A stretch of 64,000 bases of DNA from the sequence record OP555982.1, one strand, 5' to 3'. This stretch comes from Escherichia phage vB_EcoM-UFV11. How positions within the stretch are numbered: position 1 is the first letter of the stretch; each line of letters starts with the position of its first letter. The notes below the pieces were generated by a model. The model made no database searches. It had not been told where the DNA came from and saw nothing but the letters and a program-made list of their open reading frames with translations. Made by a program: the position numbers and the translations under genes. This document shows positions 2,459-36,795 of the stretch, in pieces.

Positions 2459-4274
2459 ACTGGCTCATCCATTCTTTACGAAGGTCAGCATTATCTCCCA
2501 TGAGCATTTCAAAAAGCTCTTTCCAATTCTCAGGAAGTTTAACAACATCATATACTGGGTTTTGAATCATCTCACGATATTCAGATTTTTCCAAAGAGCC
2601 AAGTCCTTTAATATAACGGATGCTATGTTTAGGTAGAGCATCTTTGGCACTCTCATATTCAGCGACTGTATAAAACCATTCTTGTTTTTTACCGACCTGA
2701 GCGATGATTACAGGAGTTTTGACAAAGCGAATTCGTCCTTGCTCAAACAATTCTGGCCAATTACTAAAAAATCCGAGCAGAGAAGGATAAATGCTTCCTA
2801 AACCATCATGGTCAGCATCGGTCATAATAGCAATATTATGATAATTCAAGTTTTCAGCTTTTTCACCAAGAACTAATCCAGTGATTGCGCAAATATCAAA
2901 CAGTTCTTTGTTTTTAAGCATATCAGCATATGACATACCCCAGCTATTAAGAACTTTACCACGCAATGGATAACCACCGTGAAGTTCTTTATCACGAACA
3001 TCAATAAGATATCCGATAGCAGAATCACCCTCAGTCAAGAAAAGAGTAGTGTCAGCATCTTTACCACAAAGATTCGCTTTGATATGTTTATGAACCTTAG
3101 CTTTAGAAGCCTTTTTAGCTGCTTTAGTTTCTGCTGCTTTTTCTGCCGCCAATTTACGAGCAAGGGCAGCTTCAATGATTGGCATTAAAATTGCTTCATT
3201 ATTTAGAATAGCGCGTGAAATCTTTTTAGCATCAAGTTGAATATGACTACGAATTTCGCCAAATGGAGAAGTCAAACGCTCTTTAGTTTGAGAATCAAAT
3301 CGCATGTTTTTCATATCACGGACAAACATAACGATAGTCAAACATTCTTTGACACGTGCTTTAGTCACATCAATTTTGAACTTACGTTTGATTTGTGGAA
3401 TAAGGTCTTCACAAATATCATCCATAACACAGTCAATGTGATGGCCACCATTCTTAGTGTGAATGTTATTCACATAAGTTAATTGACGAAATCCATCCGG
3501 TGAACGACCAACAGCAATAGAACAATTTTCTTGTTCTTGAACAATAGCATGTTCATCATACTGTCGTGCATATTTCTTAAAATTGCCCTGAACCTTTTTA
3601 CCATTAAAGGTAAATTGAATATCAGGATAAACAACAGCAAGTGTCTGGAGACGATCTAGTGTAATGTCAAGATAAACTTGGGACAGCTCATTAGTTTCAA
3701 ATGACATAAAATCTGGAATGAAAGTAACACGAGTTCCTTTCCATTTTCCAGGAATAGTTTCCCAGGATTTATTTTCCATGCCATTTGAACAACGAACTAC
3801 AATATTATTTTGACCATCGCCAGTTTCACCGACAAACATCACAGAAAAAATGTTAGTTAAACTAGAACCAACACCATTCATACCACCGGTGACGCGTTCT
3901 TTATCATCACCAAAGTTACCACCCGCTTTTGGAATAGTCCATGCAGCAACAGGACCAGGAATTTCTTCACCGGTAGGTGTTTTAACCATCGCTTGCGGAA
4001 TACCGCGACCGTTATCTTCAACTGTCACCTGATTATTTTTAATGGTAACATTAATTTTATTCGCGAATTTAAACTTAGTACGAATACCTTCATCGACTGA
4101 GTTATCGATAATTTCATCAATAAGCTTAACAAGACCAGGTACATACTGAACACTTTCCCATTTACCAAACAGAAAGCGCTCATGCATTTCATTAGCAGAA
4201 GAGCCAATGTACATGCCACTACGCTTTTTGATATGTTCAATATCGCTCAGAATTTTAATTTCATTCTTAATCAT
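2457..4274 (-). CDS. 39: DNA topoisomerase II large subunit, uninterrupted gene 39 form (605 aa)
   Basis: 606-codon ORF; first in-frame codon is GTG, ATG at 4272-4274 with SD GAGGA 6 nt upstream; N-term MIKNEIKILSDIEHIKKRSGMYIGS; GyrB-like motifs. Confidence 0.9.
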   Translation of the reverse strand: MIKNEIKILSDIEHIKKRSGMYIGSSANEMHERFLFGKWESVQYVPGLVKLIDEIIDNSVDEGIRTKFKFANKINVTIKNNQVTVEDNGRGIPQAMVKTPTGEEIPGPVAAWTIPKAGGNFGDDKERVTGGMNGVGSSLTNIFSVMFVGETGDGQNNIVVRCSNGMENKSWETIPGKWKGTRVTFIPDFMSFETNELSQVYLDITLDRLQTLAVVYPDIQFTFNGKKVQGNFKKYARQYDEHAIVQEQENCSIAVGRSPDGFRQLTYVNNIHTKNGGHHIDCVMDDICEDLIPQIKRKFKIDVTKARVKECLTIVMFVRDMKNMRFDSQTKERLTSPFGEIRSHIQLDAKKISRAILNNEAILMPIIEAALARKLAAEKAAETKAAKKASKAKVHKHIKANLCGKDADTTLFLTEGDSAIGYLIDVRDKELHGGYPLRGKVLNSWGMSYADMLKNKELFDICAITGLVLGEKAENLNYHNIAIMTDADHDGLGSIYPSLLGFFSNWPELFEQGRIRFVKTPVIIAQVGKKQEWFYTVAEYESAKDALPKHSIRYIKGLGSLEKSEYREMIQNPVYDVVKLPENWKELFEMLMGDNADLRKEWMSQ

Positions 4275-20803: not shown

Positions 20804-21166
20804 TTAAAAGAATTTAAATTTTTTCTTTGACCTTTTATTAAATGCATCTTGTAGTTGCATTGTAATACATTTTTCTACATGAGGAGCTAACTCAGCTTTT
20901 CTTTCTTGGTCAAGAACAGCAAAGTCCATTACGACTTTTCCATCAACCCAATCTAATTTTGTCACATACACAATGTGTGTAGAACCGTCTTCTAGTTTAA
21001 TGACAATCTCCTGGATAACATTTTCCATGGCAGATTTAATTATCTTAAGAGATTCATTAAAAAGACGTTCTTTTCTTTCTTCTTCCCCCTCCGAAGAGGG
21101 GGATTCATCGATAATTTTTAGATCTAAATCTAAATCATCTTTATTCATTAAATTCTTCCATATCAC
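20804..21166 (-). CDS. 40: gp40-like protein
   Basis: 120-aa ORF between uvsX and 41. Confidence 0.55.
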   Translation of the reverse strand: MIWKNLMNKDDLDLDLKIIDESPSSEGEEERKERLFNESLKIIKSAMENVIQEIVIKLEDGSTHIVYVTKLDWVDGKVVMDFAVLDQERKAELAPHVEKCITMQLQDAFNKRSKKKFKFF

Positions 21167-22322
21167 TTAACTGATCTAGGTCAGTTTCTAAATCAGCTGC
21201 TGATTTACTTTTACTTTCTGGAGATTTAAATTTTTCAACCTTTGAGTTAATCAATTCATCAACTTCAGCTTCAACAATTTCATTACTATCAATAGCACCT
21301 AACTGATAAGCACGTTTAATAGCATCTCGGAACGGTTGATGCTTAAATAAAGGACCCCAGAATGTAGTGCAATTGGTATCTTTTGCACGCCAAGATTTTT
21401 CTTCGCGAATCATCTCGCCGGTTTCTTCGTCAAGAAATTCACGAGCATACCAGCCATTTTTAGGTTTTACCACAAATCCTAATTCTAAAGCCATATCTAA
21501 CAATCCAGAATAAGGATCGATGCCACCGTCAAATTTAACATCAATAAAGAATTTACTTTTTTCTTTGACGGTACGAGATTTTTCTACATTTAGAACAAAT
21601 TGATACCCCTGAAGATCAGAACCATCTTTAATCTGGCGCTTACCGATAATGAATACGGTATCAGCCGAATACATTACACCTGTACCACCTGTCATCACGG
21701 TTTTACTAAACATTTCAATTGTTTCAATTGTGTGGTTAACCGCAACACATGGAATATTTTTAATACTAAAATAAGGAGTAACAATACGGAATAATGACTT
21801 CAGTGATTTAGCACGAGTCATATCTGCCACAGATTTTTCATTCAAGGCATCTTCCGTTTCTTTCTTAGAAGCCATATTACCGATTGAGTCGATGAATACA
21901 ATAACTTTTTCACCACGCTCAATAGCTTCAAGCTGATTCACCATATCAATTTTCAGCTGTTCAACTGACTGAATTGGTGTATGAATTACTCGTTCCGGAT
22001 CAACTCCCATGGATCGCAAATAAGCTGGAGTAATACCAAATTCGCTATCATAGAATAGACACACCGCGTCAGGATATTTGTTCAAATACGCCGCAACCAT
22101 AGTCAAAGACATATTTGATTTAAAGTGTTTAGAAGGACCTGCAAAAATGGTTAAACCAGACTGCATACCACCATCAATCGCACCTGAAATAGCGATATTA
22201 AGCATTGGGATTTTTGTACGGATTACATCCTTTTCATTAAAGAATTTAGATGTAGTCAGTTCAGCAGTCATTTTAGAAGTGGAAGCTTTAATCAAACGGG
22301 ATTTTAAATCTGCAATAGACAT
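21141..22322 (-). CDS. uvsX: UvsX recombinase (RecA-like)
   Basis: 393-aa ORF; Walker A GPSKHFKS; matches recalled T4 UvsX. Confidence 0.95.
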   Translation of the reverse strand: MSIADLKSRLIKASTSKMTAELTTSKFFNEKDVIRTKIPMLNIAISGAIDGGMQSGLTIFAGPSKHFKSNMSLTMVAAYLNKYPDAVCLFYDSEFGITPAYLRSMGVDPERVIHTPIQSVEQLKIDMVNQLEAIERGEKVIVFIDSIGNMASKKETEDALNEKSVADMTRAKSLKSLFRIVTPYFSIKNIPCVAVNHTIETIEMFSKTVMTGGTGVMYSADTVFIIGKRQIKDGSDLQGYQFVLNVEKSRTVKEKSKFFIDVKFDGGIDPYSGLLDMALELGFVVKPKNGWYAREFLDEETGEMIREEKSWRAKDTNCTTFWGPLFKHQPFRDAIKRAYQLGAIDSNEIVEAEVDELINSKVEKFKSPESKSKSAADLETDLDQLSDMEEFNE

Positions 22323-22375
22323 TCATTTTTTCCATAGGCATCATTATATTTTCCTCACTGGTTAAAGATAAAGTA

Positions 22376-22402
22376 ATTATAACACAATAAATTTAGGCAT
22401 TA
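22376..22402 (-). promoter_or_regulatory. MotA-dependent middle promoter
   Basis: minus strand TAATGCCTAAA then 12 nt then TATAAT upstream of uvsX. Confidence 0.5.
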
Positions 22403-23248
22403 ATCAACTGCTATTGGATGAATAGCATTAAACTTATGAAACGCTTCTGATTTTTCTTTGCGCGAAACACACATGCGAAGAACCTTTAATGGCTCGTCTT
22501 CTTCACCCAACGATTTTCTCTTTTCAATATTAGAAGTTTTCCAACGAGCTTGCTCTGGAAACTCTCTATTGATTTGCTCAAGAGCTCTATTATGTTTTGA
22601 ATTACTACGAATTGAACTACATCCGCCTGGAGCTTGTGCTTTTCCAGATACAACCAGATATTTGAACAAGGCCAAATGCGGATAACCTTGATTAATTAAA
22701 TTGAGAAATGCATACATATCTTCGCATAAATCAATTTTTCCATACCCAATTTGTTCTGTTGTAAGTTTCCCGAGGTCATACCAAGTATTCGTGAATCCAT
22801 ATGAATTTTCACGATAATTACCCCAAGATGAAGTAATTTTAAAAATTGGTAAACGAGCATGGCCATGATAATACCCGCAATCCATGGCATCTTCAACGTA
22901 TTGAATCAATTCATAGAACTGTTCACGAGTTAACTGATTAATTTTATCTACGCAGCGACGGTCATCTTTCTTTCGCATTGAACTCATACGAATAGTAGTA
23001 TCATCGTCAATCATCCAAATTCGTTGACCTGCATACATATCAGTAATTGCTTTACGAGTACCAGCAATTCCGTTAACATCATCAGGAATAGTTATAATTT
23101 TAGCTCTAGACCCGTAAGCGTCATAATAAGCTTTTTCTTCGTGTTCACGTACTACAATATGTGGTTCATAATCAGTCGGAAACATATCAAGGGCAGAAAC
23201 TGCCCCTACGCGTTGATAGCTTGGAATTACGAATTGAATCATTTCCAC
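22400..23248 (-). CDS. putative GT-A fold glycosyltransferase (candidate hmC-DNA sugar transferase)
   Basis: 282-aa ORF; VIPSYQR and DXD (IWMIDDDTT) motifs; sits where T4 has beta-gt. Confidence 0.5.
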   Translation of the reverse strand: MEMIQFVIPSYQRVGAVSALDMFPTDYEPHIVVREHEEKAYYDAYGSRAKIITIPDDVNGIAGTRKAITDMYAGQRIWMIDDDTTIRMSSMRKKDDRRCVDKINQLTREQFYELIQYVEDAMDCGYYHGHARLPIFKITSSWGNYRENSYGFTNTWYDLGKLTTEQIGYGKIDLCEDMYAFLNLINQGYPHLALFKYLVVSGKAQAPGGCSSIRSNSKHNRALEQINREFPEQARWKTSNIEKRKSLGEEDEPLKVLRMCVSRKEKSEAFHKFNAIHPIAVD

Positions 23249-23979
23249 TCACCGTTATAATCTTTTTTCGCAATATGAGTTTCGCCAGTTTTCCACCAAT
23301 GGTCAACCAAATAAAAATGACGGGAATACACATGAAGGCTCCCGACATTCCATATAATGGAACCTGCTTTATACTGACGGGTTGAATCACCTGCATTCAA
23401 ATCAGATACTAATTTATCTAGTACGTATTTTTGCCATGCATAATCATTACGGAATCCGAAGACCACGTCATTTGAACGCATGCTTACTACTGCATTGACT
23501 TTCTTATCACGAATCAGGTACTGTACTGTATTCGTACACATGAAATCTGACATACCATCTTTATTGTAGTCAAACTGCATGGATGGACGAGTATAAATCA
23601 TGATACCACGCCGAGAATCAGGATTTTGACCAAGTTCAGCTAAACACATATCATACTGAGCATAGTTATCTTCTGACCAAATAGCCCAACCATAATTCGA
23701 GTTAATTTCGCCTTTAGAAGATGCTACCTGTTGCCAAATCTTCGGTGTTTCACCTGGAATATCTTTAACAAACAGGCTTTGAGACTTATACCATTCAAGT
23801 TCACGCTGAATGTATTCATCATTAAGAGCGCCAAAAATAAAAGGTTCATCTGCTACAAATGATGCACCAATAATTTCAATAGTTTTAACACCAGTTTTAT
23901 CAATTACGAAATCTTTTTCCTTTAATGCAAGACCCAAATCAAGACGGATTTCTTCAACTGTCATATAATCGTTAATCAT
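23239..23979 (-). CDS. 42: dCMP hydroxymethylase gp42 (246 aa)
   Basis: 246-aa ORF matching recalled T4 gp42. Confidence 0.95.
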   Translation of the reverse strand: MINDYMTVEEIRLDLGLALKEKDFVIDKTGVKTIEIIGASFVADEPFIFGALNDEYIQRELEWYKSQSLFVKDIPGETPKIWQQVASSKGEINSNYGWAIWSEDNYAQYDMCLAELGQNPDSRRGIMIYTRPSMQFDYNKDGMSDFMCTNTVQYLIRDKKVNAVVSMRSNDVVFGFRNDYAWQKYVLDKLVSDLNAGDSTRQYKAGSIIWNVGSLHVYSRHFYLVDHWWKTGETHIAKKDYNGEWK

Positions 23980-23986
23980 TTAAACC

Positions 23987-24136
23987 TCAATTGATGCATT
24001 CATATTTAATTTGTAACAGTAATAAACCCCAACCTATAATAAGTGTCGGAATCATACAAGGAACCGTTACGCTATAGTATATACTTATTATAATCATCAA
24101 GATTAAAAGCAATACTGCTAAAATTTTGCTTTTCAT
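23987..24136 (-). CDS. small hydrophobic membrane protein
   Basis: 49-aa ORF; ATG overlaps imm stop (ATGA). Confidence 0.35.
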   Translation of the reverse strand: MKSKILAVLLLILMIIISIYYSVTVPCMIPTLIIGWGLLLLQIKYECIN

Positions 24137-24384
24137 TCCTTCTCTCTGATGATAATTACTTGATTTGGTTGTACAGATTTTTTAGTTTCACCTGCAATTG
24201 ACCAAATAAATGTAATAAACCAACCAATGATTGACCAGTTAAACAGTAAAGATGTGAAAAAGATTCCTACTGTCGATTTTGACCCACGCATCAAGGCGAT
24301 GAACCATGGAAGCATGTATATAATAATAGCCAACACGCCTGAAACTAAAACCATAAAAATTGAACCTGCTACTAAAGTTTCCAT
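24133..24384 (-). CDS. imm: immunity to superinfection protein Imm (83 aa)
   Basis: 83-aa two-TM membrane protein. Confidence 0.85.
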   Translation of the reverse strand: METLVAGSIFMVLVSGVLAIIIYMLPWFIALMRGSKSTVGIFFTSLLFNWSIIGWFITFIWSIAGETKKSVQPNQVIIIREKE

Positions 24385-24391
24385 ATTTTCC

Positions 24392-24772
24392 TCACTTAGT
24401 CAAATTTTTTACGCATGAATTATAAGAATTCACTACATACTCCATCGGAGCATTTTTACCTGTACGCCATTGGTAATTATTAGCCCAATTAGCCCAAAGC
24501 TCAGCGCAGTAGTTTTCAATTTTTTCTTCGCGTGTAATTACATCTGAATTACGATATGCTTGAGCAGATTCATCTGGGCGAATAGCTTCGTCAAAATTCG
24601 CCTGCATCTGTTCTACTGTCTGTTTTGGAGCTTCTTTATAACACTTAACATTAGGATTATAAAATTTGCTTGAACAGTTTACAATTTTTCCTACATCAGA
24701 TTGATTTACTACCGGTCCTTGAGCTACACAGCCAGTAAGACCTAATGCAATAACCAAAATAGCGATTTTCAT
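24392..24772 (-). CDS. putative lipoprotein (imm.1 position)
   Basis: 126-aa ORF, signal peptide with lipobox LTGC. Confidence 0.6.
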   Translation of the reverse strand: MKIAILVIALGLTGCVAQGPVVNQSDVGKIVNCSSKFYNPNVKCYKEAPKQTVEQMQANFDEAIRPDESAQAYRNSDVITREEKIENYCAELWANWANNYQWRTGKNAPMEYVVNSYNSCVKNLTK

Positions 24773-24782
24773 AATAATTTCC

Positions 24783-25019
24783 TCAAATACAAGTAGTAAT
24801 TACTCCAGTAGTGCTTACACAGGTATTACCTAATTGAACACCCAACGTTCCATTAGTATTCATATGAAGATTATCATCAATTTTTGTTGATACTTTACCA
24901 TTCATGTGAATAATAGTATTAGATTCAATCACATTCTGAGTGTCATTTTCAATATCAATAAATGGAACAGTTGCTAATGCAACTAAACACACTGCTAAAC
25001 AACCATAAACAATTTTCAT
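24783..25019 (-). CDS. hypothetical secreted/membrane protein
   Basis: ATG at 25019 after conserved leader GGAGAATAAAATG; N-terminal hydrophobic segment. Confidence 0.5.
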   Translation of the reverse strand: MKIVYGCLAVCLVALATVPFIDIENDTQNVIESNTIIHMNGKVSTKIDDNLHMNTNGTLGVQLGNTCVSTTGVITTCI

Positions 25020-25053
25020 TTTATTCTCCAAATCCGTATCAGTTGATAGTTGT

Positions 25054-25083
25054 ATAGTACCATGGAAGAACGGGGATGTAAAT
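25054..25083 (-). promoter_or_regulatory. T4-type early promoter with conserved leader
   Basis: minus strand ATTTACATCCCCGTTCTTCCATGGTACTAT; 42-bp leader identical to 52671-52712. Confidence 0.5.
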
Positions 25084-25170
25084 AGTTTTGTGAAAAAATT
25101 TTTAATGAATTTACAGGACCTAGAATCATCTATTTTTCCTAAGTATAGATTTATATTACTTGTATGAAAA

Positions 25171-25188
25171 AGGGACCCGGAGGTCCCT
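25171..25188 (-). terminator. hairpin GGGACC-UCCG-GGUCCC
   Basis: perfect 6-bp stem downstream of gene 43 stop. Confidence 0.5.
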
Positions 25189-25200
25189 AGATTTATTCTA

Positions 25201-35576: not shown

Positions 35577-35594
35577 AAAGGGCCGAAGCCCTTT
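35577..35594 (-). terminator. hairpin AAAGGGC-UUCG-GCCCUUU
   Basis: UUCG hairpin immediately after a-gt stop. Confidence 0.5.
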
Positions 35595-36795
35595 ATTTTG
35601 TAATAATGTCAAACTGCTCTTTAAAGCAGAAGCTTGAATCTTGGTGCTGATACAAAAATTCATAAGCTTTTTCGCGTTCACGGTCATAAAGAGTTCGGTC
35701 AGATGACAGTTCTTTAATACGTTCAAATGTTGATTCCATGTCATTTTCATCAAACCAAATGATACCGCTATCATGCGAGGTCAAAGGAGTATTATCAACA
35801 CGGAATTTTAAATTTTCGCCTGTAGATTTCCAAAATACCGGAATTGTTCCACATGCACCAAGCTCGAGATGAGTATATTCTAAAGAACGTTGTAGATATT
35901 TTTTGTCCAACTTACTCAGCTGATAACCAAATCCGGATTTACTCATGCGTTCAAGCATTTCGCTATTTACATAACGGTCAAGAATTTGCGTTGGCAAATT
36001 AGGAGCAATTTTAATTTGGTCTACTTGATGAAGACGATAATACTCGTATGGAATTCCTTTTTCTTTAATAGGAATGAACGCTGGAGAACGTTCCAGACCT
36101 TCCATAATAGTACTTAGTCCTGCAGGTTTAAGATGTTTTTCATGAAAATCAAACATCTGATAAAAACCTTTCCACGTAGTAGTACGACCAATCCAACGAT
36201 TGATATTCATGTTAATTTCAGAAACATCTTTCCAGTAGGTTGATCGAACCTTTGCAATATCCATCGGAGGCTGAAAGTTATATACTGTCGGTGCTTCTTC
36301 AATATCATCAAACAGAGAAACTGTTTCAGGATACCATTCTTTCATCAGAACTTTATTAAAATCGCCATTATCAGAATGGCTAAAAATAACATCAGCTCGA
36401 CGAACAGTTTCTTCTAATCCCAAATTTCGACGCAAAGAAAGAGAAGAATGGTCATGTTGATAAACTACAACACGAACAGAAGGTTTAATGTTATCAATAA
36501 TTTTTTTATAGTTATTAATAGTGTCTTCTTCAACTGAAGTAGCAGGAACTGAATTGATAATTAGAATATCACAATCATTTACCAGCTTAAGTGTTTTATC
36601 GTATTCTTTTGCCAATAAAACCGGAATTGAAAATGATTTATAATCATGCGCGCAATTACGAGTAAATGATTTATCTTTAGCATAAACCAAAGTTACTTCA
36701 TGACCATTTTTAATAAACCAATCACGTTGCTCAAGAGAAAATTTAGTTACACCACAACCTTCAAGACCTCGAGCCATAAAAATACATACTTTCAT
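35593..36795 (-). CDS. a-gt: DNA alpha-glucosyltransferase (400 aa)
   Basis: 400-aa ORF matching recalled T4 alpha-gt. Confidence 0.88.
   Translation of the reverse strand: MKVCIFMARGLEGCGVTKFSLEQRDWFIKNGHEVTLVYAKDKSFTRNCAHDYKSFSIPVLLAKEYDKTLKLVNDCDILIINSVPATSVEEDTINNYKKIIDNIKPSVRVVVYQHDHSSLSLRRNLGLEETVRRADVIFSHSDNGDFNKVLMKEWYPETVSLFDDIEEAPTVYNFQPPMDIAKVRSTYWKDVSEINMNINRWIGRTTTWKGFYQMFDFHEKHLKPAGLSTIMEGLERSPAFIPIKEKGIPYEYYRLHQVDQIKIAPNLPTQILDRYVNSEMLERMSKSGFGYQLSKLDKKYLQRSLEYTHLELGACGTIPVFWKSTGENLKFRVDNTPLTSHDSGIIWFDENDMESTFERIKELSSDRTLYDREREKAYEFLYQHQDSSFCFKEQFDIITK

Follow-up and report, generated by a model that had tools for sequence, protein, structure and literature searches.

A predicted T2/T6-type glucosyltransferase at the T4 beta-gt position of Escherichia phage vB_EcoM-UFV11

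The beta-glucosyltransferase (beta-gt) of phage T4 is a GT-B enzyme (GT63, PF09198) that uses UDP-glucose to glucosylate the hmC of phage DNA in beta linkage. The T4 reference record gives the gene order as uvsX - segA - b-gt - 42. Escherichia phage vB_EcoM-UFV11 (OP555982.1; the window is the whole stretch of 64,000 nucleotides analysed here) has a different reading frame in the slot beside gene 42, and the question is which enzyme is encoded there and what it predicts for the modification of the phage DNA. A first-pass annotation had described a 282-amino-acid (aa) protein bearing the motifs VIPSYQR and IWMIDDDTT, had taken it for a GT-A, DXD-type enzyme in place of the GT-B beta-gt, and had suggested a DNA modification differing from that of T4, either the addition of a second sugar to glucosyl-hmC, as happens in T2 and T6, or another sugar.

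Orthologues of this gene, called ba-gt, ggt or TAGT, have been described in several phages. The T2/T6 enzyme adds a glucosyl residue to alpha-glucosylated hmC, yielding 5-gentiobiosyl-methylcytosine, and the T6 protein, modelled with AlphaFold3, has been assigned a GT-A fold, beside GT2 (PMC13216743). The same study, in which the T6 RefSeq protein YP_010067197.1 was used for homologue searches, found that an alpha-GT (or beta-GT) together with a TAGT is the common arrangement and that the T4 pair of alpha-GT and beta-GT is rare, and it called the biological role of TAGTs 'yet to be defined' (PMC13216743). Ten Tequatrovirus isolates, EH2 among them, carry an alpha-GT and a TAGT, the latter 'at the position syntenic' with T4 beta-GT; by HPLC/MS, alpha-5-gentiobiosyl-mdC was present and beta-glucosyl-mdC absent in all ten (PMC13390438). 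Gentiobiosyl-hmC replaces ~5% of cytosines in T2 and 72% in T6, and the Durham Tequatrovirus phages fall into one group with hmC, glucosyl and gentiobiosyl forms at ~1:2:2 and another with ~1/3 hmC and ~2/3 gentiobiosyl (PMC13390438). Finally, a T6 ba-gt deletion has been made; its DNA is described as containing only alpha-glucosyl-hmC, and the phage is more sensitive to Brig1, which degrades that DNA (PMC11078745). Thus, the fold of the ba-gt product, its synteny with beta-gt and the nucleoside that it makes are all already published (PMC13216743, PMC13390438, PMC11078745). Alignment with the T2/T6 enzyme, nucleoside mass spectrometry and restriction assays have already been carried out on near-identical orthologues, with the results that the first-pass annotation had guessed.

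The reading frame between uvsX and gene 42

The six-frame list of open reading frames contains an intact minus-strand frame of 282 aa at 22400..23248, which begins with GTG. It sits between uvsX (21141..22322, minus strand), its downstream neighbour, which comes from the same list and is annotated in UFV09, T6 and T4, and a 246-aa frame at 23239..23979, also on the minus strand. The latter is an intact gene 42, encoding dCMP hydroxymethylase (96% identical to T4 gp42; PF00303), and its stop overlaps the start of ba-gt. The 5' end of the ba-gt frame reads GGTGAGTGGAAATGATTCAATTC, in which an ATG at 23242 and the TGA stop of gene 42 overlap as ATGA. The deposited annotations of T2 and of vB_EcoM-UFV09, a Tequatrovirus identical to this phage, both begin ba-gt at the same ATG. 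Because of this overlap and these two annotations, ATG 23242 is preferred over GTG 23248, which is the less likely start, and the frame reported as 282 aa more likely encodes a protein of 280 aa (22400..23242), the length also of the T2 protein. The ATGA arrangement suggests that ba-gt is translationally coupled to gene 42 and would be made together with the hydroxymethylase.

By megablast, 22300-23350 is 100% identical in DNA to vB_EcoM-UFV09 (MZ291552.2, the coordinates of which are offset by one base from those of the window) and to three sibling isolates. DNA matches to this interval occur in 522 phage records, most of which are annotated 'beta-glucosyl-HMC-alpha-glucosyltransferase' or 'glucosyl transferase'. 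The GC content across ba-gt (0.34-0.37) equals that of the neighbouring genes, and there is therefore no sign of a recent foreign insertion. A promoter and terminator scan of 22000-24500 gave counts at or below the shuffled expectation, and no dedicated ba-gt promoter is claimed.

The interval that separates uvsX from ba-gt (22323-22399) contains no homing endonuclease of the segA type, in contrast to T4. The records of some relatives list a homing endonuclease (segD or a 'putative homing endonuclease') as a neighbour of ba-gt, located at its boundary with gene 42 or close by, and this boundary (23239-23260) looks like a recurrent insertion point. Within the first 20 codons of ba-gt, at 23188-23208 on the minus strand, lies a hairpin of 9 bp, rich in GC, TAGGGGCAG-TTT-CTGCCCTTG, with a T-rich stretch after it, and in two Yersinia phage records a 'terminator' feature is listed under the ba-gt match. 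Since terminator-like sites in the region are not more numerous than expected from shuffled sequence, the hairpin may be due to chance.

Family membership and the predicted GT-A fold

A tblastn search of the phage collection with the ba-gt protein matched 689 records, 471 of them at an identity of at least 95%. The protein is 98.2% identical to that of T2 (AP018813) over 100% of the query, 97.5% identical to T6 ggt (MH550421) and 98.9% identical to its counterpart in vB_Eco_EH2; the named matches also include RB3 and RB18. From the T2 and the T6 protein it differs by about five conservative substitutions each. A second tier, at 63-66% identity, comprises T4-like phages of Klebsiella, Enterobacter and Salmonella, and relatives in Serratia phages stand at ~47%. 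Family profiles point the same way: the PHROGs entry phrog_842, 'beta-glucosyl-HMC-alpha-glucosyltransferase', matches residues 2-277 with an E value of 1.9e-89, and the Pfam family PF20691, TAGT (TET-associated glycosyltransferase), matches residues 5-209 at 38.8 bits (gathering cut-off 27.5), covering profile positions 2-205 of 205. PF20691 is also carried by 46 of the 51 database relatives found in two database searches. The gene order at the T6 and T2 loci, 42 - ggt - uvsX, is that seen here. As judged from sequence, the frame at 22400-23242 (minus strand) is the known T2/T6-type beta-glucosyl-HMC-alpha-glucosyltransferase gene (ba-gt, ggt, TAGT, PF20691), the one that T2 and T6 carry, and neither a new member of the family nor a variant of it. 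The novelty implied by the first-pass annotation consequently falls away, the gene being that of T2 and T6, widespread in the collection and published in its properties; enzyme, fold, locus and product are all known, and no new biology is added.

The T6 record itself shows a peculiarity that has no counterpart in the frame examined here. In MH550421.1 (locus 4031-4036) codon 10 is an amber, TAG, where the window has CAA at 23213-23215 (Gln10 from the ATG), and ggt is annotated there from a downstream Met as a protein of 261 aa that does not contain the invariant IPSYxR strand. This amber may be a stock-specific mutation or an error, since wild-type T6 is reported to be ~72% gentiobiosylated.

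Both motifs that first drew attention to the protein occur in it; in the 282-aa version VIPSYQR begins at residue 7 and IWMIDDDTT at residue 77. Numbered from the ATG, as hereafter, VIPSYQR (23210..23230, minus strand) occupies residues 5-11 and corresponds to the N-terminal beta-strand, the 'IPxYN/R' nucleotide-binding start of GT2-like GT-A enzymes; IWMIDDDTT (22994..23020, minus strand) occupies residues 75-83 and holds the DXD-type triplet D79-D80-D81 (23000-23008). In an alignment of 48 family members R11, R63, D79, D80 and D81 are invariant (48/48), and the motifs are therefore not chance matches. Nearly invariant in the same alignment are I6, P7, Y9, R32, Y39, T62 and R212, and D175 is conserved in 42 of the 48. 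All of the family-invariant residues are present in this frame. D79-D81 presumably bind metal and UDP-glucose; that D175 is the catalytic base is a guess.

AlphaFold2 run with the 48-sequence alignment gave a model with a pLDDT of 93 and a pTM of 0.90; the alignment was required for this, the single-sequence model (pLDDT 39.5) being unusable. The model forms one Rossmann-like alpha/beta/alpha domain and can be superposed on solved structures of GT-A enzymes, and the DXD-type acidic motif follows its fourth beta-strand, D79-D81 coming directly after strand E74-78. All top structural matches, with a Foldseek probability of 1.00, are GT-A enzymes, most of them of the GT2 kind; the other entries in the match lists are further GT-A transferases and nucleotidyltransferases, and no GT-B enzyme is among the matches listed. 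Sequence and profile searches of the PDB found no significant relative and no solved structure of any family member; the best hit, the GT2 enzyme 9jma (E 0.11-0.25), is suggestive only, its weak profile alignment pairing IPSYxR with IIPTYNRPE and MLDDD with FLDDDD. The model thus assigns a GT-A fold to the ba-gt product, in agreement with the first-pass reading of a GT-A, DXD-type enzyme in place of beta-gt.

The T4 enzyme, which fills the syntenic slot beside gene 42, differs in sequence and in fold. The ba-gt protein has no sequence similarity to T4 beta-gt (best BLASTP E value 3.4) and no match to PF09198, and T4 beta-gt is not among the structural matches listed, the predicted fold being GT-A and not GT-B. 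The acceptors differ as well, being hmC for T4 beta-gt and, according to the literature, alpha-glucosyl-hmC for the T2/T6-type enzyme (PMC13216743, PMC11078745). We also considered a diverged or displaced beta-gt elsewhere in the 64-kb window, and rejected it (best tblastn E value 1.4).

A predicted route to gentiobiosyl-hmC

An enzyme of the T2/T6 type requires a supply of alpha-glucosyl-hmC, and the genome encodes both proteins that would provide it, gp42 and an alpha-glucosyltransferase. The gene for the latter (a-gt; GT-B; 35593..36795, minus strand) is full-length, with matches to PF11440 (786 bits, E 4.3e-237) and phrog_2888 (E 8.8e-223), and was correctly described as intact by the first-pass annotation. 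Its combination with a TAGT, and with no homologue of T4 beta-gt in the window, supports the earlier view that the DNA modification differs from that of T4. This finding is correct but ordinary: the arrangement is the usual one in the relatives of T4, and T4 is the exception.

In the proposed pathway, hm-dCMP produced by gp42 would first be incorporated into the phage DNA. The alpha-gt would then glucosylate hmC in alpha linkage, with UDP-glucose as the donor, and ba-gt, a predicted GT-A enzyme related to the inverting GT2 enzymes, would add a second glucose from UDP-glucose, beta-1,6, onto the alpha-glucose, giving gentiobiosyl-hmC. Donor, linkage and product are taken from the literature on near-identical orthologues, and this phage would be expected to behave as the phages that bear them; a GT2-related inverting fold would fit a beta-linked product formed from UDP-alpha-glucose. 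The virion DNA is accordingly predicted to be of the T6/T2 type and not of the T4 type, a mixture of hmC, alpha-glucosyl-hmC and gentiobiosyl-hmC lacking beta-monoglucosyl-hmC. We regard this account as a whole, a T2/T6-type ba-gt acting last in a three-step pathway to gentiobiosyl-hmC, as very probable. Of the two modifications first suggested, it is the addition of a second sugar to glucosyl-hmC, the T2/T6 type, that the alignment with those phages bears out.

The other suggestion, a different sugar, belongs to a broader alternative in which this TAGT enzyme has another specificity, using a donor such as arabinose or glycosylating bare hmC directly. Distant TAGT homologues, some of which occur without an alpha-GT or a beta-GT and others of which are paired with a beta-GT (PMC13216743), differ in their glycosyltransferase partners, and for that reason the family probably spans several specificities. 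The RB69/Mosigvirus arabinosyltransferases are likewise phage enzymes that place sugars on a modified cytosine, including a second sugar in arabinobiose (PMC13390438), but they differ in the sugar that they transfer and in the genus to which they belong. The close relatives of the ba-gt protein are all glucosyl-type proteins of Tequatrovirus and Klebsiella/Enterobacter phages, and neither this list nor the published nucleoside data (PMC13390438) support an RB69-type reading. Only about five residues distinguish the protein from that of T2 or of T6, its locus and alpha-gt partner are the same as theirs, and phages whose orthologues are 98-99% identical have gentiobiosyl-hmC in their DNA but no other sugar (PMC13390438); a changed specificity is in our estimation highly improbable. 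Still harder to credit, to the point of being negligible, is a glycosyltransferase acting off the DNA, for example on host envelope glycans or on a phage protein. The structural neighbours of the model are indeed GT2 enzymes of wall teichoic acid, O-antigen and polysaccharide synthesis, yet these are matches at the level of the fold: SpsA, TarP, TarS, RmlT, WrtF and AvpGT share only 8-16% identity with ba-gt and act on lipid-linked or polymer glycans, whereas the acceptor of ba-gt would be a sugar on duplex DNA. By sequence the protein belongs to the DNA-modifying TAGT family; deletion of the gene in T6 has its effect on DNA (PMC11078745), and ba-gt lies within the hmC pathway and is coupled to it.

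More serious, although unlikely, is the possibility that ba-gt is present but contributes little, leaving DNA that is essentially alpha-monoglucosylated with some free hmC. T2 offers a precedent, since its gene is 98.2% identical and yet only ~5% of its cytosines are gentiobiosylated (PMC13390438). Against this, gentiobiosyl-hmC is a major component, at roughly 40-67%, in all ten Tequatrovirus isolates (PMC13390438), and the UFV11 frame is intact, keeps every family-invariant residue and is apparently coupled in translation to gene 42. The proportions of hmC, alpha-glucosyl-hmC and gentiobiosyl-hmC cannot be read from sequence, because enzymes that are nearly identical differ widely in how far they carry the second glucosylation. 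There is a slim chance that the few residues that differ from T2 and T6 (against T6, for example, Y40, D55, K92, I101 and R106) or the phage background set a ratio of gentiobiosyl to monoglucosyl forms unlike that of any characterised T-even phage. Were the ratio to differ, comparison of this enzyme with those of T2 and T6 could help explain why ~5% of cytosines are diglucosylated in T2 and ~72% in T6.

The predicted modification bears on which host defences restrict this phage, and is useful in reasoning about host range for phage therapy. With a second sugar in place, alpha-glucosyl-hmC would be concealed from the glycosylase Brig1 and from other defences directed at it. Published work indicates that Brig1 acts on alpha-glucosyl-hmC and did not degrade T6 DNA, which contains mainly gentiobiosyl-hmC; that gentiobiosylated DNA is still cut by GmrSD and BrxU; and that glucosylation stops McrBC and type I/II systems.

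Small frames beyond gene 42

Two further features were observed upstream of gene 42. Between gene 42 and imm, a frame at 23987-24136 (minus strand) encodes a very hydrophobic protein of 49 aa (phrog_3610, E 1.9e-25) and directly adjoins the gene for the superinfection-immunity membrane protein; the T4 reference NC_000866 has a near-identical frame in the 42-imm gap, where it is left unannotated. The spacer between imm.1 and gene 43 (24783-25200, minus strand) is ~430 bp long here, compared with ~180 bp in T4 and T6. A 37-aa frame without a family match is annotated in this spacer in the UFV09 record, and the extra DNA also contains a 78-aa frame (24783-25019; phrog_4189) with a signal-peptide or lipoprotein-like start, MKIVYGCLAVCLVALA.
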